34,784 nucleotides of DNA from a virus (Duplodnaviria > Caudoviricetes). This document shows, in pieces, positions 19,621 through 28,421 of this stretch. The stretch lies in IMG/VR virus record IMGVR_UViG_3300012667_000745, positions 1 to 34,784 of that record, one strand, 5' to 3'. A program made the position numbers and the translations under genes. The notes under the pieces were generated by a model. The model made no database searches. It worked only from the letters and a program-made list of their open reading frames with translations, and was not told where the DNA came from. Every line of letters starts with the position of its first letter. Position 1 is the stretch's first letter.

Positions 19621-21786
19621 TTAAAAAATCTCGCCCTTGTCGATGTCGAAGTTCTCTCCGATGTCGATCTCCCAAATCTTACCTCCACCGTTACCTCTAC
19701 TGCGCACAGTGCGCACGTTCGGGTTGTGTCGGCTGACTTCCTCAAGGACGGTCATGCCCCTACGCACGAACTCCAGATTGTTTGAGTTCCCAACGCTACG
19801 GCCCCCGTTCACCTCGTGCAATACGACGGTGAACTCGGTGAGCGTGCCGCGCCATTTCGGAGTCTCGATCTGCGACCGAACCTTTTTGGCGAAGAACTCG
19901 ACCATTTCCGCGATCGCAGAACGGCTCGAATTATCGTAGGCAGCGGCTTCGATGAACGAGTCGATATACGTTTTGACGCCAAACCGATTTGAGTCGCTGA
20001 CTTCAACAGGAGCTTGCCAGTCCAACAACCAACGCAAGAAGAACGGGAGCTCAGCAGCAATGGTTCCTTCGACCCATTGGTTCGAGCCGAACTTCATCTT
20101 GTGTCCGCTATTGATACGCAGCGCGATGATCTTGTCTCGGTTACTGGAATCCAAAGTAGGCAATGCCGCCAATGAGTTGGCATCCAAGTTGAGTGACATC
20201 ATCACCCGACCCGCCCACGGCAGCGGAACAGCGTCCGCATACTTGGCATGATATTCGAGCCTAGGATTTGCCACGCACCGCTTCGTGAGCTCAACAAACT
20301 TGCGTTGGTCTGCGTAGGTGGCAGCCGCAACTTGGTCGTCAATGACCCAAGCGGCAGAACCGCAGAGGTCTTTGTTGAAGCTAGTCGTGCCGGACAAGTA
20401 GCCGCTGGCATCACTGAACCCGCCCACTGAGCCACCGACAATCTGGTTGGTGAGCAGAGTCTTGCCGTGCCCAGTTGGGCCCAGCAAAATGAGCAAGTGT
20501 CCTTGATCCATACGACTTTCAAGCACCGCCTTATAGAGCCTTTGATACCATGCGAGGAAGTAAGGCAGAGTGCTGTTGCCCTTGTCGTCGTTCGTGAAGA
20601 ACGGCATCAAGAACTGATGAATCCACGGCCAGTTCTTCGGGTCCCCATCTTCCGCAGGTTTCACCGCTGAGGTGTAGCAGTTGTTCAGGATGCGTCTGCC
20701 GTTGAACTTCACGACGCGCTCTTTCGAGAACACGACAGGGGCAACTTCGTCCACCCGACAATCATTCGAGATCGTGAGCAACGCTTGCTCCACTTCTGAA
20801 ATCGGCTGGTTCTTGTTCTGCTTCGTGGAGAAACCGCTCTTACGTAATTCGAGCACGAGTTGCTTTTCCGGCACAGTTACCGGTGAATTGTGAAGCATCT
20901 TGTAGAATGCCTTGCCGTTGAACCAGTAGTTGTCTAGCAAAGTTCCGAGCTTCTTTTGCTCGAACTTCTCCATGAACTTCTTACCTAAGATTTCACGCCA
21001 GCTCTTGAATCCCGTTCCTGCACGATCCGAGTAGCACACGATTCCGTCCTCCCGAATCTGGCATCCGTCACGGTCAATGCCGTCGTCGATCCAGAACAGC
21101 GGGCCACGGGCCCCCACGATGAACTCGCCAGTCCACCTATTCGGGAAACGGGCCATGACCTCTTGGGCCACTTCGTCGATCGGGATATTGGTGTCCTCCG
21201 TCTTAATCACTACGTCGTTTGCCGCCTTAAGCAATAGCGTCCTAACGAACAAAGAGGGCAACGGGTCACCCATTTTGGTCCAGTCCTCACCGATTGCGTA
21301 ATACTGTGTCGGTTTCAGGCTGCAACTGTCGAACTTCGCACTTAGGGTTGGCGCTCGTAAAGCATCGGACAGACGCTTGTAGAATGCCACGGCGAGTTCT
21401 GGCGCTACGAGAATAGGCTCCTCGAATTCCCACACCAGACGCATGCCCTCGGATTGGGTTTTAGAGCGCCACGTTGGTAGTGATCCACCGTCGCATCGGT
21501 CAGTGAGGATCTGGTCAATGCGGCCCCACTCAGGCGGGCAGTCGTAATCGGCTACCCATCCATAGAGTTTGTTGATCGGATTGTCCGTAGAGATCCGTTG
21601 GTTCTTGTTGTCGCCCTCGGCCATCGTGAAGAAGCAATGGTCTGTATTGGCAGATGCGCACCACGCCCGATAATTGGCCTTGCGATCAATAGCGAAGTTT
21701 GGCCTAGGATAGGGTTTAGCGAGAGGGTCAGTAAAGGTCCCGTTGATTCCCACTTGCGTGAGATTTGAAATGTAGAGGTAACTCAT
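19621..21786 (-). CDS. Primase-helicase (prim-pol-like N-terminus plus P-loop NTPase)
   Basis: ADYD and SKTQSEGMRLVW motifs, Walker A LLGPTGHGKT, Walker B WVIDD; coupled to polA. Confidence 0.75.
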   Translation of the reverse strand: MSYLYISNLTQVGINGTFTDPLAKPYPRPNFAIDRKANYRAWCASANTDHCFFTMAEGDNKNQRISTDNPINKLYGWVADYDCPPEWGRIDQILTDRCDGGSLPTWRSKTQSEGMRLVWEFEEPILVAPELAVAFYKRLSDALRAPTLSAKFDSCSLKPTQYYAIGEDWTKMGDPLPSLFVRTLLLKAANDVVIKTEDTNIPIDEVAQEVMARFPNRWTGEFIVGARGPLFWIDDGIDRDGCQIREDGIVCYSDRAGTGFKSWREILGKKFMEKFEQKKLGTLLDNYWFNGKAFYKMLHNSPVTVPEKQLVLELRKSGFSTKQNKNQPISEVEQALLTISNDCRVDEVAPVVFSKERVVKFNGRRILNNCYTSAVKPAEDGDPKNWPWIHQFLMPFFTNDDKGNSTLPYFLAWYQRLYKAVLESRMDQGHLLILLGPTGHGKTLLTNQIVGGSVGGFSDASGYLSGTTSFNKDLCGSAAWVIDDQVAAATYADQRKFVELTKRCVANPRLEYHAKYADAVPLPWAGRVMMSLNLDANSLAALPTLDSSNRDKIIALRINSGHKMKFGSNQWVEGTIAAELPFFLRWLLDWQAPVEVSDSNRFGVKTYIDSFIEAAAYDNSSRSAIAEMVEFFAKKVRSQIETPKWRGTLTEFTVVLHEVNGGRSVGNSNNLEFVRRGMTVLEEVSRHNPNVRTVRSRGNGGGKIWEIDIGENFDIDKGEIF

Positions 21787-24404
21787 TTTGCGTAGAGGTC
21801 GAGGATGTGTCCTTCAGCAGCAACGGGAATGTCTGGAATCCAATCCGGTGGCGTTGACATGATGTTCAAGATGTTGCTAAGGGCTTCATCGGCAATCGCT
21901 TCAGGCACTTCGCAAACAACTTCGTCATGGACGTGCAGGATAATCGGGTATCCAGCGGCGTCAATACGCAGCATCATGTCAGAGAAGATATCTCTAGCAA
22001 GCCCCTGACTAGCATTTTCAGCGAGTGTGCCCCCGTATAGCTTGATGTCACGCATTCCGCCCATGCGATACATCTTGCCGATGATGGCAAAGCGATCGCC
22101 TAGGGCTTTCATTTTGCGCAGCTTGCCGTAGCGTAAAATACGGGCCGATGGTAGCTCCAACTCGAACGGAACGCCCAAAGCGCAGGCGGTAACCAGTTCC
22201 TGATTCAGCTTAGCCCAGTAATTCACTACCGACTTCATCCGTAAGCGGTAAGTGCGCACAGCTTGCTCAGCTTCCTCAAGGCTCATGCCGCTGAATTCAG
22301 CGAACCGAGCGGCCCCGATTCCGTAGCCACAATTGTGGACCACCATAGGGCCCGCGTCCGTAAGTATCGTGAACCTATTCCGTGGTCCCGCGAAGCTGAC
22401 ATCGTAGACTACTGACCTCCTTTTCGAGTTCGGTAATTCTTGTCTGCATACCATAAACGGTCCTGCGGTTTTGCATATTGTCAGATCTGGAGACAAATCG
22501 TAGGTTTTCTGGCTGGTAACCTCGATCATTGTCGATCCTGTCGAGTTGTAGTTCAGCGTCATCCCACCCTTTGAGGGTAGTGAGATAGGCGAGGAACTCC
22601 TGCCTTCGCCCCCTCCACGGTGGGAATACGTGTATTCCACGCCCCCCATAATGCCTGTAAGCTGCGTCATTTGGGTTGTGGCATCGGTTGATGCAGGCCG
22701 AAATACGGTCAAGAAGTCGCTGTCTAGCGTCGTGGTCGGGGACGAAATTTTCGTATCCGCTGTTCCTCCGATTGGTTTCCGCTGATTTCTGTTTGGCGCA
22801 CGTGTTGCACCTAGTTGTCCTTCCCGTTTTGACGTTGTTTCTGTCCACAACACCAATCCATCCGCATTCACACCGCATTCGCGGATGCCATGCCCTATTT
22901 TTGTTAACCCATTCGAGCACGGTAAAGTTACCGACCTTACTGCCGACTCCGTAAGGGAAGGGTTTGTAGCCACCTCGCACCACTCCAGCCACCCATCTTC
23001 CGTTAGAATCTCGTGGTCCTCTGTTACACCCACCCCGTGTTGTCTGATTGTCTCCTGTTCCCCTTGACATATAATTCCATTATGGTTAACCCACTCAACC
23101 CCATCCCATACTCGGTCTTGGGTTTCTAGATATAGAATAGGTTTCCAACCGTATTCAGTCAAGACCAAAGTATCGGGCTCAAAGCATCCCAAAACCATTG
23201 CCTTGACCCGTTGCCTGAGTCCTTTGTCGTAGTCCTTGAGCTCGCCGTTGGCTGGATCGTGCAGGCCCAACAACACACCGAACGCATGGTAGATGTCCTT
23301 AGCGTTGCGGATCATGTCCAAGGCCCGCTTGTCCCCCGCCAGATAACTGAGCGTGCGAACCTCAATCTGGGAAAGGTCAGCTACAATGAGCTTGTTGCCT
23401 GCCTTAGGCTTAATCATGTGCCGGAAATTGACTCCGAACATTTCTTCCCGAGGCAGGTTCTGCAAGTTGAGGTTGCCGCCGCTGCCGCTGAAACGTGCAG
23501 TTGGGTTCGCCCCGCAATACATGAGTCCCCCATAATAGCGATCGTCAGGCATCGTGCCGTAATCGAACGCCTGTAGTTTCTTCTGGAACATGTTAATGCG
23601 GCGGTAGTCCTGCACCGATCGTGCCCACGGGCAATCTTGTTGGTGTGCAGCAAACCACTTGTCCGCATCCTCGTTGCCTGCGGCCAAAGACTTCGGCGGG
23701 TCAATGCCTTGCTTGCGGCATTGTGCGTTGAATGCCTTGCGGCTCAACGGGGTTGCGTCACCGATCCAAGGGATTGACCGTTCGGCGTCAAACAAGGTGT
23801 TGCCAATCTTAACGATGTTCTCACGTAATGCTTTAACGTCGATCGGCAAACCGCGCTGGCAGATCTTGCGGTTCATCCGGCTGATGTCTCGCTCAACTTG
23901 CGGCCATTGCTCGTGTAATGTTTTCCAGATACGCAAGCAAAGCTGAGAGTCAACGATCGCGTATTGGGTGACCTCCTTGCGGAACTCCTCGGACATCGAA
24001 GACCATTGCAAGCCTTTCATGTTATCCCGAGTTGTCTTATCGACTTTGATGTCGAATAGGGTAGCACTCGCGTTTTTGAGCGAGCGGGGCAGACCTAAGT
24101 AGGCGACCATATCAGCGGTGCAGTGCCATTCGGCGGGAGTGCAAGGCTTGAACCAGCCGCAGTTTACCCCGTGCAGGTAGAGCGACTCATCGAAGGAGGC
24201 GTTGTGGCTCAAGACAGTATGGCCGTTAAGCATGGACCAGTCGAATTCCCGAGGGCAGCCTGCGTATACATAACCATCATCCCCGACGACGGTTACCATA
24301 TAGGCTTCAAAAGAAGGGTGCGAGAAATACCCAGCAGGTCCTAGTGTGGTGATAGAGCATTCGGAGTCGTAGAAACTCTCGAAATCCAAGGCGTATGTAA
24401 TCAT
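21783..24404 (-). CDS. polA: Family A DNA polymerase precursor containing an intein (588 aa after splicing)
   Basis: Exonuclease motifs LDFES and HNASFD; TARFSG, NLQNLP, motif A DLSQIEVR, motif B RQRVKAMVLG|CGYG, motif C HVHDE. Confidence 0.95.
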   Translation of the reverse strand: MITYALDFESFYDSECSITTLGPAGYFSHPSFEAYMVTVVGDDGYVYAGCPREFDWSMLNGHTVLSHNASFDESLYLHGVNCGWFKPCTPAEWHCTADMVAYLGLPRSLKNASATLFDIKVDKTTRDNMKGLQWSSMSEEFRKEVTQYAIVDSQLCLRIWKTLHEQWPQVERDISRMNRKICQRGLPIDVKALRENIVKIGNTLFDAERSIPWIGDATPLSRKAFNAQCRKQGIDPPKSLAAGNEDADKWFAAHQQDCPWARSVQDYRRINMFQKKLQAFDYGTMPDDRYYGGLMYCGANPTARFSGSGGNLNLQNLPREEMFGVNFRHMIKPKAGNKLIVADLSQIEVRTLSYLAGDKRALDMIRNAKDIYHAFGVLLGLHDPANGELKDYDKGLRQRVKAMVLGCFEPDTLVLTEYGWKPILYLETQDRVWDGVEWVNHNGIICQGEQETIRQHGVGVTEDHEILTEDGWLEWCEVATNPSLTESAVRSVTLPCSNGLTKIGHGIRECGVNADGLVLWTETTSKREGQLGATRAPNRNQRKPIGGTADTKISSPTTTLDSDFLTVFRPASTDATTQMTQLTGIMGGVEYTYSHRGGGEGRSSSPISLPSKGGMTLNYNSTGSTMIEVTSQKTYDLSPDLTICKTAGPFMVCRQELPNSKRRSVVYDVSFAGPRNRFTILTDAGPMVVHNCGYGIGAARFAEFSGMSLEEAEQAVRTYRLRMKSVVNYWAKLNQELVTACALGVPFELELPSARILRYGKLRKMKALGDRFAIIGKMYRMGGMRDIKLYGGTLAENASQGLARDIFSDMMLRIDAAGYPIILHVHDEVVCEVPEAIADEALSNILNIMSTPPDWIPDIPVAAEGHILDLYAK
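22332..23186 (-). mobile_element. Intein (285 aa, precursor residues 407-691) in PolA motif B
   Basis: Block A CFEPDTLVLT, block B VTEDHEILT, block F VYDV...NRFTI, block G VVHN followed by Cys+1. Confidence 0.95.
22375..23070 (-). CDS. HNH homing endonuclease nested inside the intein in the -1 frame
   Basis: RCECG...RCNTC, RCHNPNDAAYRHYGGRGI and LDRIDNDRGYQPENLRFVSRSDNMQNRR motifs; own ATG and TAG. Confidence 0.9.
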   Translation of the reverse strand: MSRGTGDNQTTRGGCNRGPRDSNGRWVAGVVRGGYKPFPYGVGSKVGNFTVLEWVNKNRAWHPRMRCECGWIGVVDRNNVKTGRTTRCNTCAKQKSAETNRRNSGYENFVPDHDARQRLLDRISACINRCHNPNDAAYRHYGGRGIHVFPPWRGRRQEFLAYLTTLKGWDDAELQLDRIDNDRGYQPENLRFVSRSDNMQNRRTVYGMQTRITELEKEVSSLRCQLRGTTE

Positions 24405-25340: not shown

Positions 25341-25588
25341 GATTATGATATAGGATTACAGATTCAGTGCTTTGTTTGCTGGTCCTGACTGGTCGGACTT
25401 AGGTGGTAAAAAGTAAAAAGGGGCGCAAGGTTCTTGGCGTTTAAGTCAGGCTGCATACAGCAACTGACCCCTGAAAGTGGTAGAAATTGACGGCCCGTTG
25501 ATTACCTTTGGATTTGGAATCCTCTGGTTCCGCCTATTAACCGACTACGGGCCAACGTCGGAATCACTTAGGTTAGGGAAAGTTGCGG

Positions 25589-25807
25589 TTACTCGGCGTG
25601 CGCGAATTGCGTTCCCGCACGTTCAAGCCGCTTCCCGAGGATTTGGACGTATTCACTCATCACCCGTTGCTGGGAGTAGAGCAGATCCTTGTCTTCGCGT
25701 GGCAGCTTCGGGAATGCCGGATCGGCCATGAACGTATTGAGTTTGTTCAGGCGTGTGGCGGTTTCTTGCGTCTCAATGAGGAGACGTGCTCTTTGTTCTT
25801 GGTCCAT
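25589..25807 (-). CDS. crAss001_48-like small helical protein
   Basis: RL..E..E...RLNKL..F......L...D..LL..Q..VM.EY..IL..RL pattern. Confidence 0.7.
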   Translation of the reverse strand: MDQEQRARLLIETQETATRLNKLNTFMADPAFPKLPREDKDLLYSQQRVMSEYVQILGKRLERAGTQFAHAE

Positions 25808-25898
25808 AATGTTGTTTTATGTGTGAGAAAGTGTCACCGCATGGGGTCTTTCACCCCTCCAGTTTAGACGACTGGCGCATTAACATGCGGTGCGGTAT

Positions 25899-25973
25899 TG
25901 GTTGCGCAGTCGGGATTTGAACCCGAAACCCTTGCTTATGAGACAAGTGAGATACCGTTTCTACCACCGCGCT
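25899..25973 (-). tRNA. tRNA-Met(CAT), initiator-like, with encoded CCA
   Basis: AGCGCGG TG GTAGAAACGGTATCTC A CTTGT-CTCATAA-GCAAG GGTT TCGGG-TTCAAAT-CCCGA CTGCGCA ACCA. Confidence 0.9.
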
Positions 25974-26015: not shown

Positions 26016-26597
26016 TTAGTCAAAAAACGCTTCGAACTTTTCGATCCTAATCTTTAGTTCTTCGTTTTCAGTGAACAGTTTATCAATGAGTGCATTTTTA
26101 GCACAATGGGCTTCTTCCCACTTTTCTATTTCGCTTTTGAGAACGCCCAGTTCTTTACACACGTTTTCGAGATCAGCTCGCTTACAGTGATTTTCTGTTT
26201 GTAGTTCCCCAACTAAACGCTGGAACGCGTCTCGTTCGTTGCCCAGCGCTAGAATTCGTTGGAGGGCTGAACTTACTGTGACCAGTAACCTGCCTTCAAG
26301 AGTAAGGTTCTTCGCCCGCGCATCGTCGATGATTTTGGATGCCTCGAAAATCGTTTTGGTTTTAGCGTTTGACTCGTCCCGTTCGTTTTGGAGCATAAGC
26401 TCGCGACGTAGCACCGCTATGCGATGCACGCACACAAGGTCTTCATGCATCATCTTCCAAGTATCACGGTCTTGGGTCGCCTGTTTTACGGTGCTTTCGG
26501 ATTCCAACCCTTTCAGGGCTAGCTTTAGAATATCTCTATGTGCGTCCCCTAGGATTGGGTTCTTTAGTTTCTCTAGGATGTCTTCTTTAGTAATCAT
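26016..26597 (-). CDS. Coiled-coil hypothetical protein
   Basis: 193 aa with an L/E/K-rich heptad pattern. Confidence 0.65.
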   Translation of the reverse strand: MITKEDILEKLKNPILGDAHRDILKLALKGLESESTVKQATQDRDTWKMMHEDLVCVHRIAVLRRELMLQNERDESNAKTKTIFEASKIIDDARAKNLTLEGRLLVTVSSALQRILALGNERDAFQRLVGELQTENHCKRADLENVCKELGVLKSEIEKWEEAHCAKNALIDKLFTENEELKIRIEKFEAFFD

Positions 26598-26686
26598 GGT
26601 ATGTGTTTATGGGAAAGTGGTCAGGAGGTTTTTACACCCAGCTAGCAGAGGCGATCAACCCTCCGCAGTCTGTTTTATCCCGAAAG

Positions 26687-26960
26687 TGGTAGCCGCTTAC
26701 GGCGGCAAGTCGTGTGGGCCGTTATTATTTCTTGCGCTTGTGCTCCCTGAACGGCTGGGAATTGACCTCGCAGGTATTGACCACATCTCAACCACCGTAG
26801 AGGTCGCTCACGCCTCGGTAGATGGAACTCGACGATGCATCGGCGGAACTCATAAACTTTGATCGTGCCCACGTCTGACGGTGGCTGAGATGTAGTGACC
26901 GATTACGTCGGTCAGGCGTATCGCATTAACGCTGCGATAGGTGTCGTAGTTTTAGAATGG
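26687..26960 (-). ncRNA. Candidate structured non-coding RNA of unknown class
   Basis: 18-bp helix with G-U pairs only on the - strand, several hairpins with GNRA-type loops, possible pseudoknots, ACCA 3' end. Confidence 0.6.
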
Positions 26961-26977
26961 CGGAGTTTTCCTAGGTC

Positions 26978-28117
26978 TTACTTACTGGTAAGGCTGTATC
27001 TGGTTGGTCCGATCTCAACGATGCCTAGATCAATAGCTTCAGATTCGAACTGGTCAACAATAAAAGATTTTTTTCCTTTATCCGTTTTGTTGTGTAGGGC
27101 AGTTGAAACCTGATTGAGTGTTAGGTCAGCGGCTTCGATGATGTCCTCCATCTCAAGACCATACTGGATTCCGAGTTTGGCTAAGTAGTTTTTCTCAAGG
27201 GTCTTCTTAAGGCCGCCCATAGAGCGCAGCTTGTGGTGCTCGAACTCGTGCCCGTTTAATGCCAATCCGGTAGCCTTGTGCTTAATCGACTTTGCCCAGT
27301 TTTCTACAATCTTTGCCACGATGAACAGGCGCTCCAGAACTTCAGGATCTTCAACTTCTGACGGGCTTATAGGTCCCGTAGGCAGTAGGTCTGGCCGGAT
27401 CTTTTTGGCGATCGTGACACAGACTGCACCTAATGCGGGGCAGTTCTCCTCGTGCCTACAGAAGCGGCAGTTCACTGAAGGAGTAACATCGTCGATGTCG
27501 ATATCGCCTGTAGCCCACTTCGGTCTTACTGTTTCGGCCTTGCCGATTACGTCGGAGATCTCCTTGCGTAGGGTGGGCATTTCGTCACGCACGAATACGC
27601 CGCTGAGGATGCCCCCGTTGAGTGGCACGATGAAGGCGAACTTGATCGTGTGCAGGTGCGGGAACATTTGGAACGCCGCCAATGCGTAGGCTTTGGATTG
27701 CCAGTTATTCTTTGGGTCGTCAATCTTGCTGATGCCTGTCTTGTAGTCGATCATCACGGCTACGCCATCCGGAGAATGCACCAATAAGTCGCATGTGCCG
27801 AAGGTTGGGGTAGCCGCATCAAGCTCAAGCACTAGACGGATCTCCCGTTGGGTTGTTTTCGGTAGGTCACCGAACACGCCGTTTAGGATCTCGTCTTCAT
27901 CCTTAATGATGCCATCATAGATTTGCAGCTCTTCTTCATCGTGCAAAGCGGATGGGTCGCGTATCTCAAGGGCTTCATGTATCCTTGTTCCTTTTTCGGC
28001 AGCCGCAGAGGTCCCATCCTTGCCGTGGTATCCGGCACAGGTTGCGACATACTTGAGTGAGGAAGGGCCGAACTCAGCGTGTGCTCGTTCGGAGTGGTTT
28101 ACGGTTTCTGTATTCAT
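26978..28117 (-). CDS. Cas4-like PD-(D/E)XK exonuclease (DUF2800-like)
   Basis: HAEFGPSS..C, GTRIHE, FGTCD, IDYKTG, Q..AYA and CRFC....CP motifs. Likely start MNTET at 28117. Confidence 0.85.
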   Translation of the reverse strand: MNTETVNHSERAHAEFGPSSLKYVATCAGYHGKDGTSAAAEKGTRIHEALEIRDPSALHDEEELQIYDGIIKDEDEILNGVFGDLPKTTQREIRLVLELDAATPTFGTCDLLVHSPDGVAVMIDYKTGISKIDDPKNNWQSKAYALAAFQMFPHLHTIKFAFIVPLNGGILSGVFVRDEMPTLRKEISDVIGKAETVRPKWATGDIDIDDVTPSVNCRFCRHEENCPALGAVCVTIAKKIRPDLLPTGPISPSEVEDPEVLERLFIVAKIVENWAKSIKHKATGLALNGHEFEHHKLRSMGGLKKTLEKNYLAKLGIQYGLEMEDIIEAADLTLNQVSTALHNKTDKGKKSFIVDQFESEAIDLGIVEIGPTRYSLTSK

Positions 28118-28133
28118 TTGTGTAGGGTAAAAG

Positions 28134-28421
28134 TTACGGGTTATCGGAGTCGTTGCGTTGTCGGGCGTAATAGTGGCTGCGTTCATTCGGTGTGAGTTTA
28201 TCCACGCCGTGCTCTTTCACTTTGGCCTCAATCTCCTCCCCAATGCGGTCGAACTCCTGATGCTTCAACCACCATTTATTCACTTCCTCCAAATTAGGTA
28301 GGTAATTAGGGCTGTGTTTATTTACTGAGGTGCATAAGGTGCATAAAAGTTCGGTGAGATAATGTATCTTTTTTGCGAGTCTGATTGGTCTATCGTGGGT
28401 GTCTGGATCGTAGCAGGGCAT
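28134..28421 (-). CDS. Hypothetical protein
   Basis: 95 aa, MPCYD...LLC..C...WW..H phage-type pattern. Confidence 0.65.
   Translation of the reverse strand: MPCYDPDTHDRPIRLAKKIHYLTELLCTLCTSVNKHSPNYLPNLEEVNKWWLKHQEFDRIGEEIEAKVKEHGVDKLTPNERSHYYARQRNDSDNP

Follow-up and report, generated by a model that had tools for sequence, protein, structure and literature searches.

Variable units bracketed by conserved repeats are known from CRISPR arrays and integron cassettes, and engineered tRNA and F30 scaffolds rely on a stable stalk that displays an arbitrary RNA domain. Racr repeats and pseudo-ToxI repeats are phage RNA decoys, and we know of no such decoy in which a shared stalk is joined to a shuffled library of domains. 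The element considered here, a phage unit built from a conserved stalk and two variable inserts, has something in common with each of these. Its repeats likewise bracket variable units, in this genome beside a Cas4-like DUF2800 nuclease; however, its inserts are 17-115 nt long and folded, the nuclease family adjoins only 9 of 54 units (one cluster), and genomes mostly hold a single unit. The likeness to phage decoys, as small phage RNAs blunting host defence, lies only in the proposed working principle, and those decoys differ in that each mimics one host RNA. The engineered scaffolds are synthetic, and the phage stalk would be their natural counterpart.

Among natural RNAs, the bacterial and phage Y RNAs YrlA and Yrn1 also consist of a conserved long stem and a separate domain able to mimic tRNA; in the part of PMC4201824 drawn on here, some phages are described as having them, and GNCGAA(N)G is given as the Y RNA motif of YrlA. 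By analogy, the stalk family may work like a Y RNA, its stem staying constant and its effector domain varying. Unlike YrlA, it has at least 29 unrelated forms of its second domain, most of them not tRNA-like; the motif is absent from the conserved arms (alignment A1, inspected by eye), there is no Rfam match to YrlA, and no Ro60/TROVE gene was found in 26 records, 12 of them near-complete phages (controls matched in 2 of 14), though the host may supply one. GOLLD and ROOL are comparable as phage RNAs located near tRNA islands, with function not known, and GOLLD includes a variable linker that sometimes holds tRNAs; going by the portion of bioRxiv 10.1101/2024.12.08.627333 used, both are large conserved cage-forming folds, GOLLD often exceeding 800 nt, whereas about 80 nt are conserved here and the variable part dominates. 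Assignment to GOLLD or ROOL was rejected, as the cores span only 77-173 nt and give no Rfam match. Phage tRNAs themselves are treated as decoys against retron or anticodon nucleases in part of bioRxiv 10.1101/2023.03.15.532788.

Over the element, Rfam 15 gave no match at gathering score nor down to E 10, and the initial annotation had been unable to place the RNA in tmRNA, RNase P, SRP, group I/II introns or small ribozymes; neither ARAGORN nor Rfam called a tRNA or tmRNA over it. At homologous loci (sets of 20, 20 and 10), Rfam matched only flanking tRNA or tmRNA genes. A CRISPR-like guide array was rejected as well, the inserts being of non-uniform length (17-115 nt for V1, 22-112 nt for V2) and their antisense matches to the window's own 58%-complete contig staying at chance level. 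No reverse transcriptase family was present among 43 ORFs of the window or 103 ORFs downstream of homologs. Literature searches found no description of the stalk family, and its motif was not found in the searched part of Fremin 2023 (PMC10690425), although the stalk may be among the 10,006 candidates there. By the features examined, the element lies outside Y RNAs, GOLLD/ROOL, tRNA and tmRNA, known ribozymes and guide arrays, and it belongs to no Rfam family.

The window, meaning the whole 34,784-nt stretch of DNA analysed, is a linear virus record that is 58% complete and encodes polymerase A, a helicase, the DUF2800 Cas4-like nuclease, an RNA ligase, ThyX, an endolysin and tail genes. The element lies on the minus strand in the intergenic space separating the nuclease (26978-28186) from a 193-aa ORF (26016-26597), with a tRNA-Met 0.7 kb away. 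The earlier statement that no credible ORF covers it holds: of the two overlapping ORFs (65 aa on the minus strand and 207 aa on the plus strand), the 65-aa frame, the one scanned, has no Pfam or PHROG match, same-strand ORFs of at least 70 aa span 6/54 cores, and the inserts vary from 17 to 115 nt. The unit (Table 1) opens with hairpin H and the 5' arm, continues with a bulged inner strand that ends in GGGCA, then V1 and UGAGCGACC, and after these has the 3' arm (ending UGUGG), a U, V2 and CCACA(CG), often followed by another hairpin. The two pseudoknots predicted in V2 would pair 26769-26774 with 26731-26736 and 26750-26755 with 26718-26723.

Table 1. Features of the stalk unit in the window and of the cassette that follows it
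Feature	Coordinates	Strand	Remarks
Leader hairpin	26919-26939	-	Accessory, only in close relatives; a different hairpin takes its place in L008/L114
Hairpin H, 7 bp, CGUAA loop	26896-26914	-	Directly abuts the long helix
5' arm of conserved 17-bp helix	26879-26895	-	
Bulged inner motif, 5' strand, ends GGGCA	26866-26878	-	
Variable insert V1, 55 nt	26811-26865	-	One of 29 types; L001 copy identical; without stable nested fold, z +1.87
Inner motif, 3' strand, UGAGCGACC	26798-26810	-	Two GA bulges; AGCGACC in 50/54 cores
3' arm of helix, ends UGUGG	26781-26797	-	Followed by U in 51/54 cores
Variable module V2	26718-26780	-	Hairpin 26744-26760 and two predicted pseudoknots
CCACACG linker	26709-26717	-	CCACA can pair instead with the UGUGG that forms the long helix's base
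Second CGUAA hairpin and ACCA	26687-26706	-	Such a hairpin opens the second stalk unit in L001 and L007 (tandem array)
Next RNA cassette of cluster	26605-26686	-	Covarying hairpin, CCA-like end; conserved among relatives L112-L119 and exchanged on its own

Viral, metagenome and genome collections were scanned with patterns, yielding 106 raw helix candidates, which were reduced to 54 distinct cores of 77-173 nt by requiring the 5' arm signature and removing antisense duplicates and chance helices; L019 and L160 (truncated) and L151 (5' arm only) stand outside this set, and in one pattern scan only 2 of 55 loci were true family members by eye. Taken alone, the sequence folds modestly better than its shuffles on the minus strand, with z -2.17, and shows no such gain on the plus strand, where z is -0.19. 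In 25 aligned units, 94.7% of stalk cells are paired, compared to 32-44% in slid-structure controls, and 12/28 pairs show compensatory changes, a count inflated by kinship among the sequences and reached by none of 500 shuffles. The long helix alone is 98.8% paired in the 25 sequences, and the inner stem closing V1 has 109/152 cells paired vs 72.1 ± 4.4 in shuffles. Most homologs were gathered with arm patterns and sequence conservation of the arms is therefore partly built in; a check free of 3'-pattern bias was for this reason made on loci chosen by the 5' arm alone, 22/23 of which possess a pairing 3' arm. One-sided changes in the stalk are G-U wobbles, fixing its strand as minus. Upstream of the helix, a hairpin of at least 5 bp ends 0-2 nt away in 27 of 30 distinct sequences, the H sequences being very different from one another. 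The comparison shows a covarying stalk on the minus strand, in which hairpin H is predicted to lie beside a 17-bp helix with a bulged motif.

Several pairings of the initial annotation are borne out: the hairpins at 26919-26939 and 26896-26914, the 18-bp helix 26878-26895/26781-26798 with its two G-U pairs, the TCCC/GGGA hairpin whose loop GCCGTT is complementary to AACGGC, and the terminal GCCGC/GCGGC hairpin with ACCA are all present in the sequence. Three others do not survive in homologs. The bases of the proposed GC-GTGA-GC hairpin pair with GGGCA in the family, those 5' of them being variable; ACCT-GCG-AGGT is broken in two of three other copies, where its UGCG bases pair downstream instead; and CGTGGGC, thought to pair with GCCCAC, is limited to a small subgroup of cores, CCACA pairing with UGUGG instead. 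As these three pairings fail and the leader hairpin occurs only in close relatives, the proposal of a new structured phage ncRNA is supported in part, by minus-strand covariation and no Rfam match, but not as a single RNA of about 270 nt; it consists of modules that are exchanged independently of one another.

The contents of the stalk are diverse. The 54 V1 sequences fall into 29 clusters and the 47 V2 sequences into 28; the commonest V1 is joined to 10 V2 types, and 8 V2 types are found with more than one V1 type, showing that V1 and V2 combine freely. Three phages with a 92-96% identical nuclease have the same frame in the same place with different contents. Arms are mosaic in L145, L125 and L178, and in a single DNA run (X9) the same arms enclose different inserts; both observations fit swapping by recombination. 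In the commonest V1, 8/21 predicted pairs are compensatory in 13 sequences, and the columns of a predicted pseudoknot are invariant. Taken together, V1 types hardly exceed shuffles in nested folding energy (mean z -0.52, n=34); the V1 of the window folds worse than shuffles and has no sequence variant among homologs. The window's V2 type shows one compensatory change in its hairpin across a total of only four copies, and is one of two V2 types that also occur elsewhere without the stalk, with a diverged copy in L146/L104. Palindromic kissing loops showed no enrichment. A T-arm is found in 6 of 57 module types vs 0.09 ± 0.31 by chance, and is absent from the window's own V1 and V2.

As a tentative best explanation, the unit is a member of a phage array whose conserved stalk carries exchangeable domains, and it is probably transcribed, the stalk displaying these folded domains as would-be decoys against host RNA-binding or tRNA-cutting defence proteins. 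A more speculative possibility is that these units make up a natural library of RNA aptamers or decoys, recombining on a shared stalk, each domain neutralising a different host RNA-binding defence or machine. The unit would be co-transcribed with the replication genes in the window, or in certain carriers be driven by a promoter of its own, and hairpin H would stack with the long helix, shielding the RNA from exonucleases. The near-identical arms could provide homology for the swapping of inserts between co-infecting phages, and an arms race with host defences would drive insert diversity. UGUGG might switch to the downstream CCACA, perhaps once the stalk has been cut, and so let V2 close as a separate domain. 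Counting against decoys, just 6/57 module types are recognisably tRNA-like. Known structured RNA classes have a conserved fold, whereas here only the stalk is conserved and the payload is shuffled among more than 50 module types, most never described. If these are decoys, phage counter-defence gains a diversifying RNA arm in which each module points to a host target, and the library, if real, would be an RNA counterpart of anti-defence gene islands; even if they are not, the family offers naturally occurring compact folds by the dozen, along with a display scaffold of natural origin, all directly testable in vitro.

The base of the stalk bears on the alternatives. CCACA lies within 125 nt downstream in 34/49 units vs 9.2 ± 2.6 in shuffles, and UGUGG therefore has two partners; with G-U pairs allowed, the test for alternative pairing does not discriminate (35 vs 32.4 expected). 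In L136, L130 and L162, V2 finishes with a T-arm and then 7 nt whose last bases are CCACA, arranged as in an acceptor stem, with U at position 6-8. These features would suit a stalk that serves processing, in which the long helix would signal a host double-strand RNase to cut, releasing V1 and V2 as separate small RNAs with varied jobs; UGUGG/CCACA would turn into an acceptor stem like that of a tRNA, with RNase P trimming it. The helix is of a length that suits RNase III, and L146 has the window's V2 type by itself, closed by a stem of its own. However, upstream pairing of UGUGG in the window is favoured by about 8 kcal/mol (-80.1 vs -72.2) and most V2 types are not cloverleaves. Processing is considered unlikely, although it is compatible with a stalk that displays decoys.

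The same two partners could be taken for a cis-acting switch, in which V1 or V2 would sense a ligand and the choice of partner for CCACA would control downstream read-through or translation. The mutually exclusive pairing is conserved and the units are intergenic, some of them following a promoter-like site, but the downstream genes vary between units, the element has no terminator-like site, and units occur in tandem and amid tRNA and tmRNA genes, leaving such a switch with a small chance of being correct.

Slightly more doubtful still is a new small self-cleaving ribozyme, modelled with the bulged inner motif as active site and V1 as a tolerated peripheral insertion, which would cut phage RNA clusters apart. 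Ribozymes do occur beside phage tRNAs, and the inner motif has a conserved unpaired CA, a G-G and two GA bulges. Against this, the motif is missing or replaced in 4/54 cores while the helix is retained, ribozyme families gave no covariance-model match down to E 5-10, and a ribozyme would not require inserts this elaborate. Least probable of all is a cassette site acting at the DNA level, with arms as folded single-strand recombination substrates like integron attC and inserts as passengers: the inverted repeat is imperfect and its terminal part variable, and units stand in tandem and are evidently shuffled, all of which would agree with it, but one-sided changes give G-U wobbles on a single strand, the inserts bear T-arms and covarying stems typical of RNA, and no integrase is present among 43 window ORFs scanned or 103 downstream ORFs.

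Returning to a stalk that would carry decoys, its carriers are varied. A covariance model matches 19 of 20 records, which were chosen as carriers except for G017, with one sense unit each; G017, the record missed, has a presumed capsid protein 63% identical to that of the window and no stalk. The window's presumed capsid protein (453 aa) matches 9/20 records (8/12 near-complete) at 81% down to about 30% identity, and the near-complete G010, G013, G015 and G016 carry the stalk without such a match, showing that the stalk is patchily spread over phages with unrelated capsids. L001 carries two units in tandem, and L004, a 56% relative, carries none. No neighbour gene family is common to more than 11/54 units. 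RNA ligase was rejected as an obligatory partner, being present in 8/24 records and 4/12 near-complete ones. A promoter-like site precedes 9/46 units vs 2.5 ± 1.7 expected, which hints at promoters for some units, but 6 of the 9 belong to one promoter family.

Cultured phages gave no real match (3 matches, E 0.4). Of nine matches in the genome collection, seven were chance; the two true ones lie on MAG contigs bearing the labels Verrucomicrobiia and Terrimicrobiaceae, and these two labels hint at a verrucomicrobial host, on which tmRNA and ThyX were uninformative; the element in L125 is the same core as that in phage G015. Among 151 genomes sampled from the phylum of G026, covariance model R1 matches only two (the known G026 contig and a weak 58-nt match in G140), and the element is therefore not a housekeeping RNA in the genomes searched, by which a housekeeping RNA of cellular Verrucomicrobiota was rejected.

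The neighbourhood includes a PF21825 protein at 25589-25807 (-) (E 5e-15), 0.9 kb downstream of the window's unit; PF21825 is Sequestin, an anti-Thoeris sponge, in the part of bioRxiv 10.1101/2025.07.12.664507 drawn on. Several units have tRNA or tmRNA genes close by, and together with the Sequestin gene these are suggestive, as context, of an anti-defence role. The Sequestin stretch is skipped in a relative from run X1 and in L002. Among Pfam matches of the 103 ORFs downstream of homologous units, 7 of which matched any family, no anti-defence family was recognised, and the Sequestin neighbour may therefore be incidental. By Rfam, tmRNA genes lie near stalk units at L001:2924-3287 (+), which ARAGORN missed, and L163:478-825 (-).

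Other observations concern the surrounding genes and RNAs. Polymerase A (21783-24404, -) contains an insertion of about 270 aa (residues 428-699) that matches phrog_93 'endonuclease' and, judged by its end residues, looks like an intein. In relatives, a six-codon ORF encoding MKTPP and an aromatic residue precedes the leader hairpin and is a possible leader peptide; the window (about 26950-26972, -) has lost its ATG. The region of the window is a cluster of small RNAs, several of which are followed by ACCACTTT (3 of 4 matches in the window), and the cassette at 26605-26686 (-) recurs in an unrelated context in L115/L116. Further along the minus strand, 25810-25900 forms a conserved multi-way junction directly after tRNA-Met, 25470-25575 forms a long stem around a hairpin with an anticodon-like loop and has a diverged covarying copy in L116, and 25385-25475 is a conserved structured element ahead of a 203-aa gene. 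Two more types of recurrent cassette follow the stalk unit (L008, L015, L019; L076, L092, L103, L145), with no Rfam match in L019, L076, L092 or L103. The first is framed by GCCTGCCAGTGAAAG and has a variable middle of its own, and the second is a compact predicted pseudoknot following CACGAAT.
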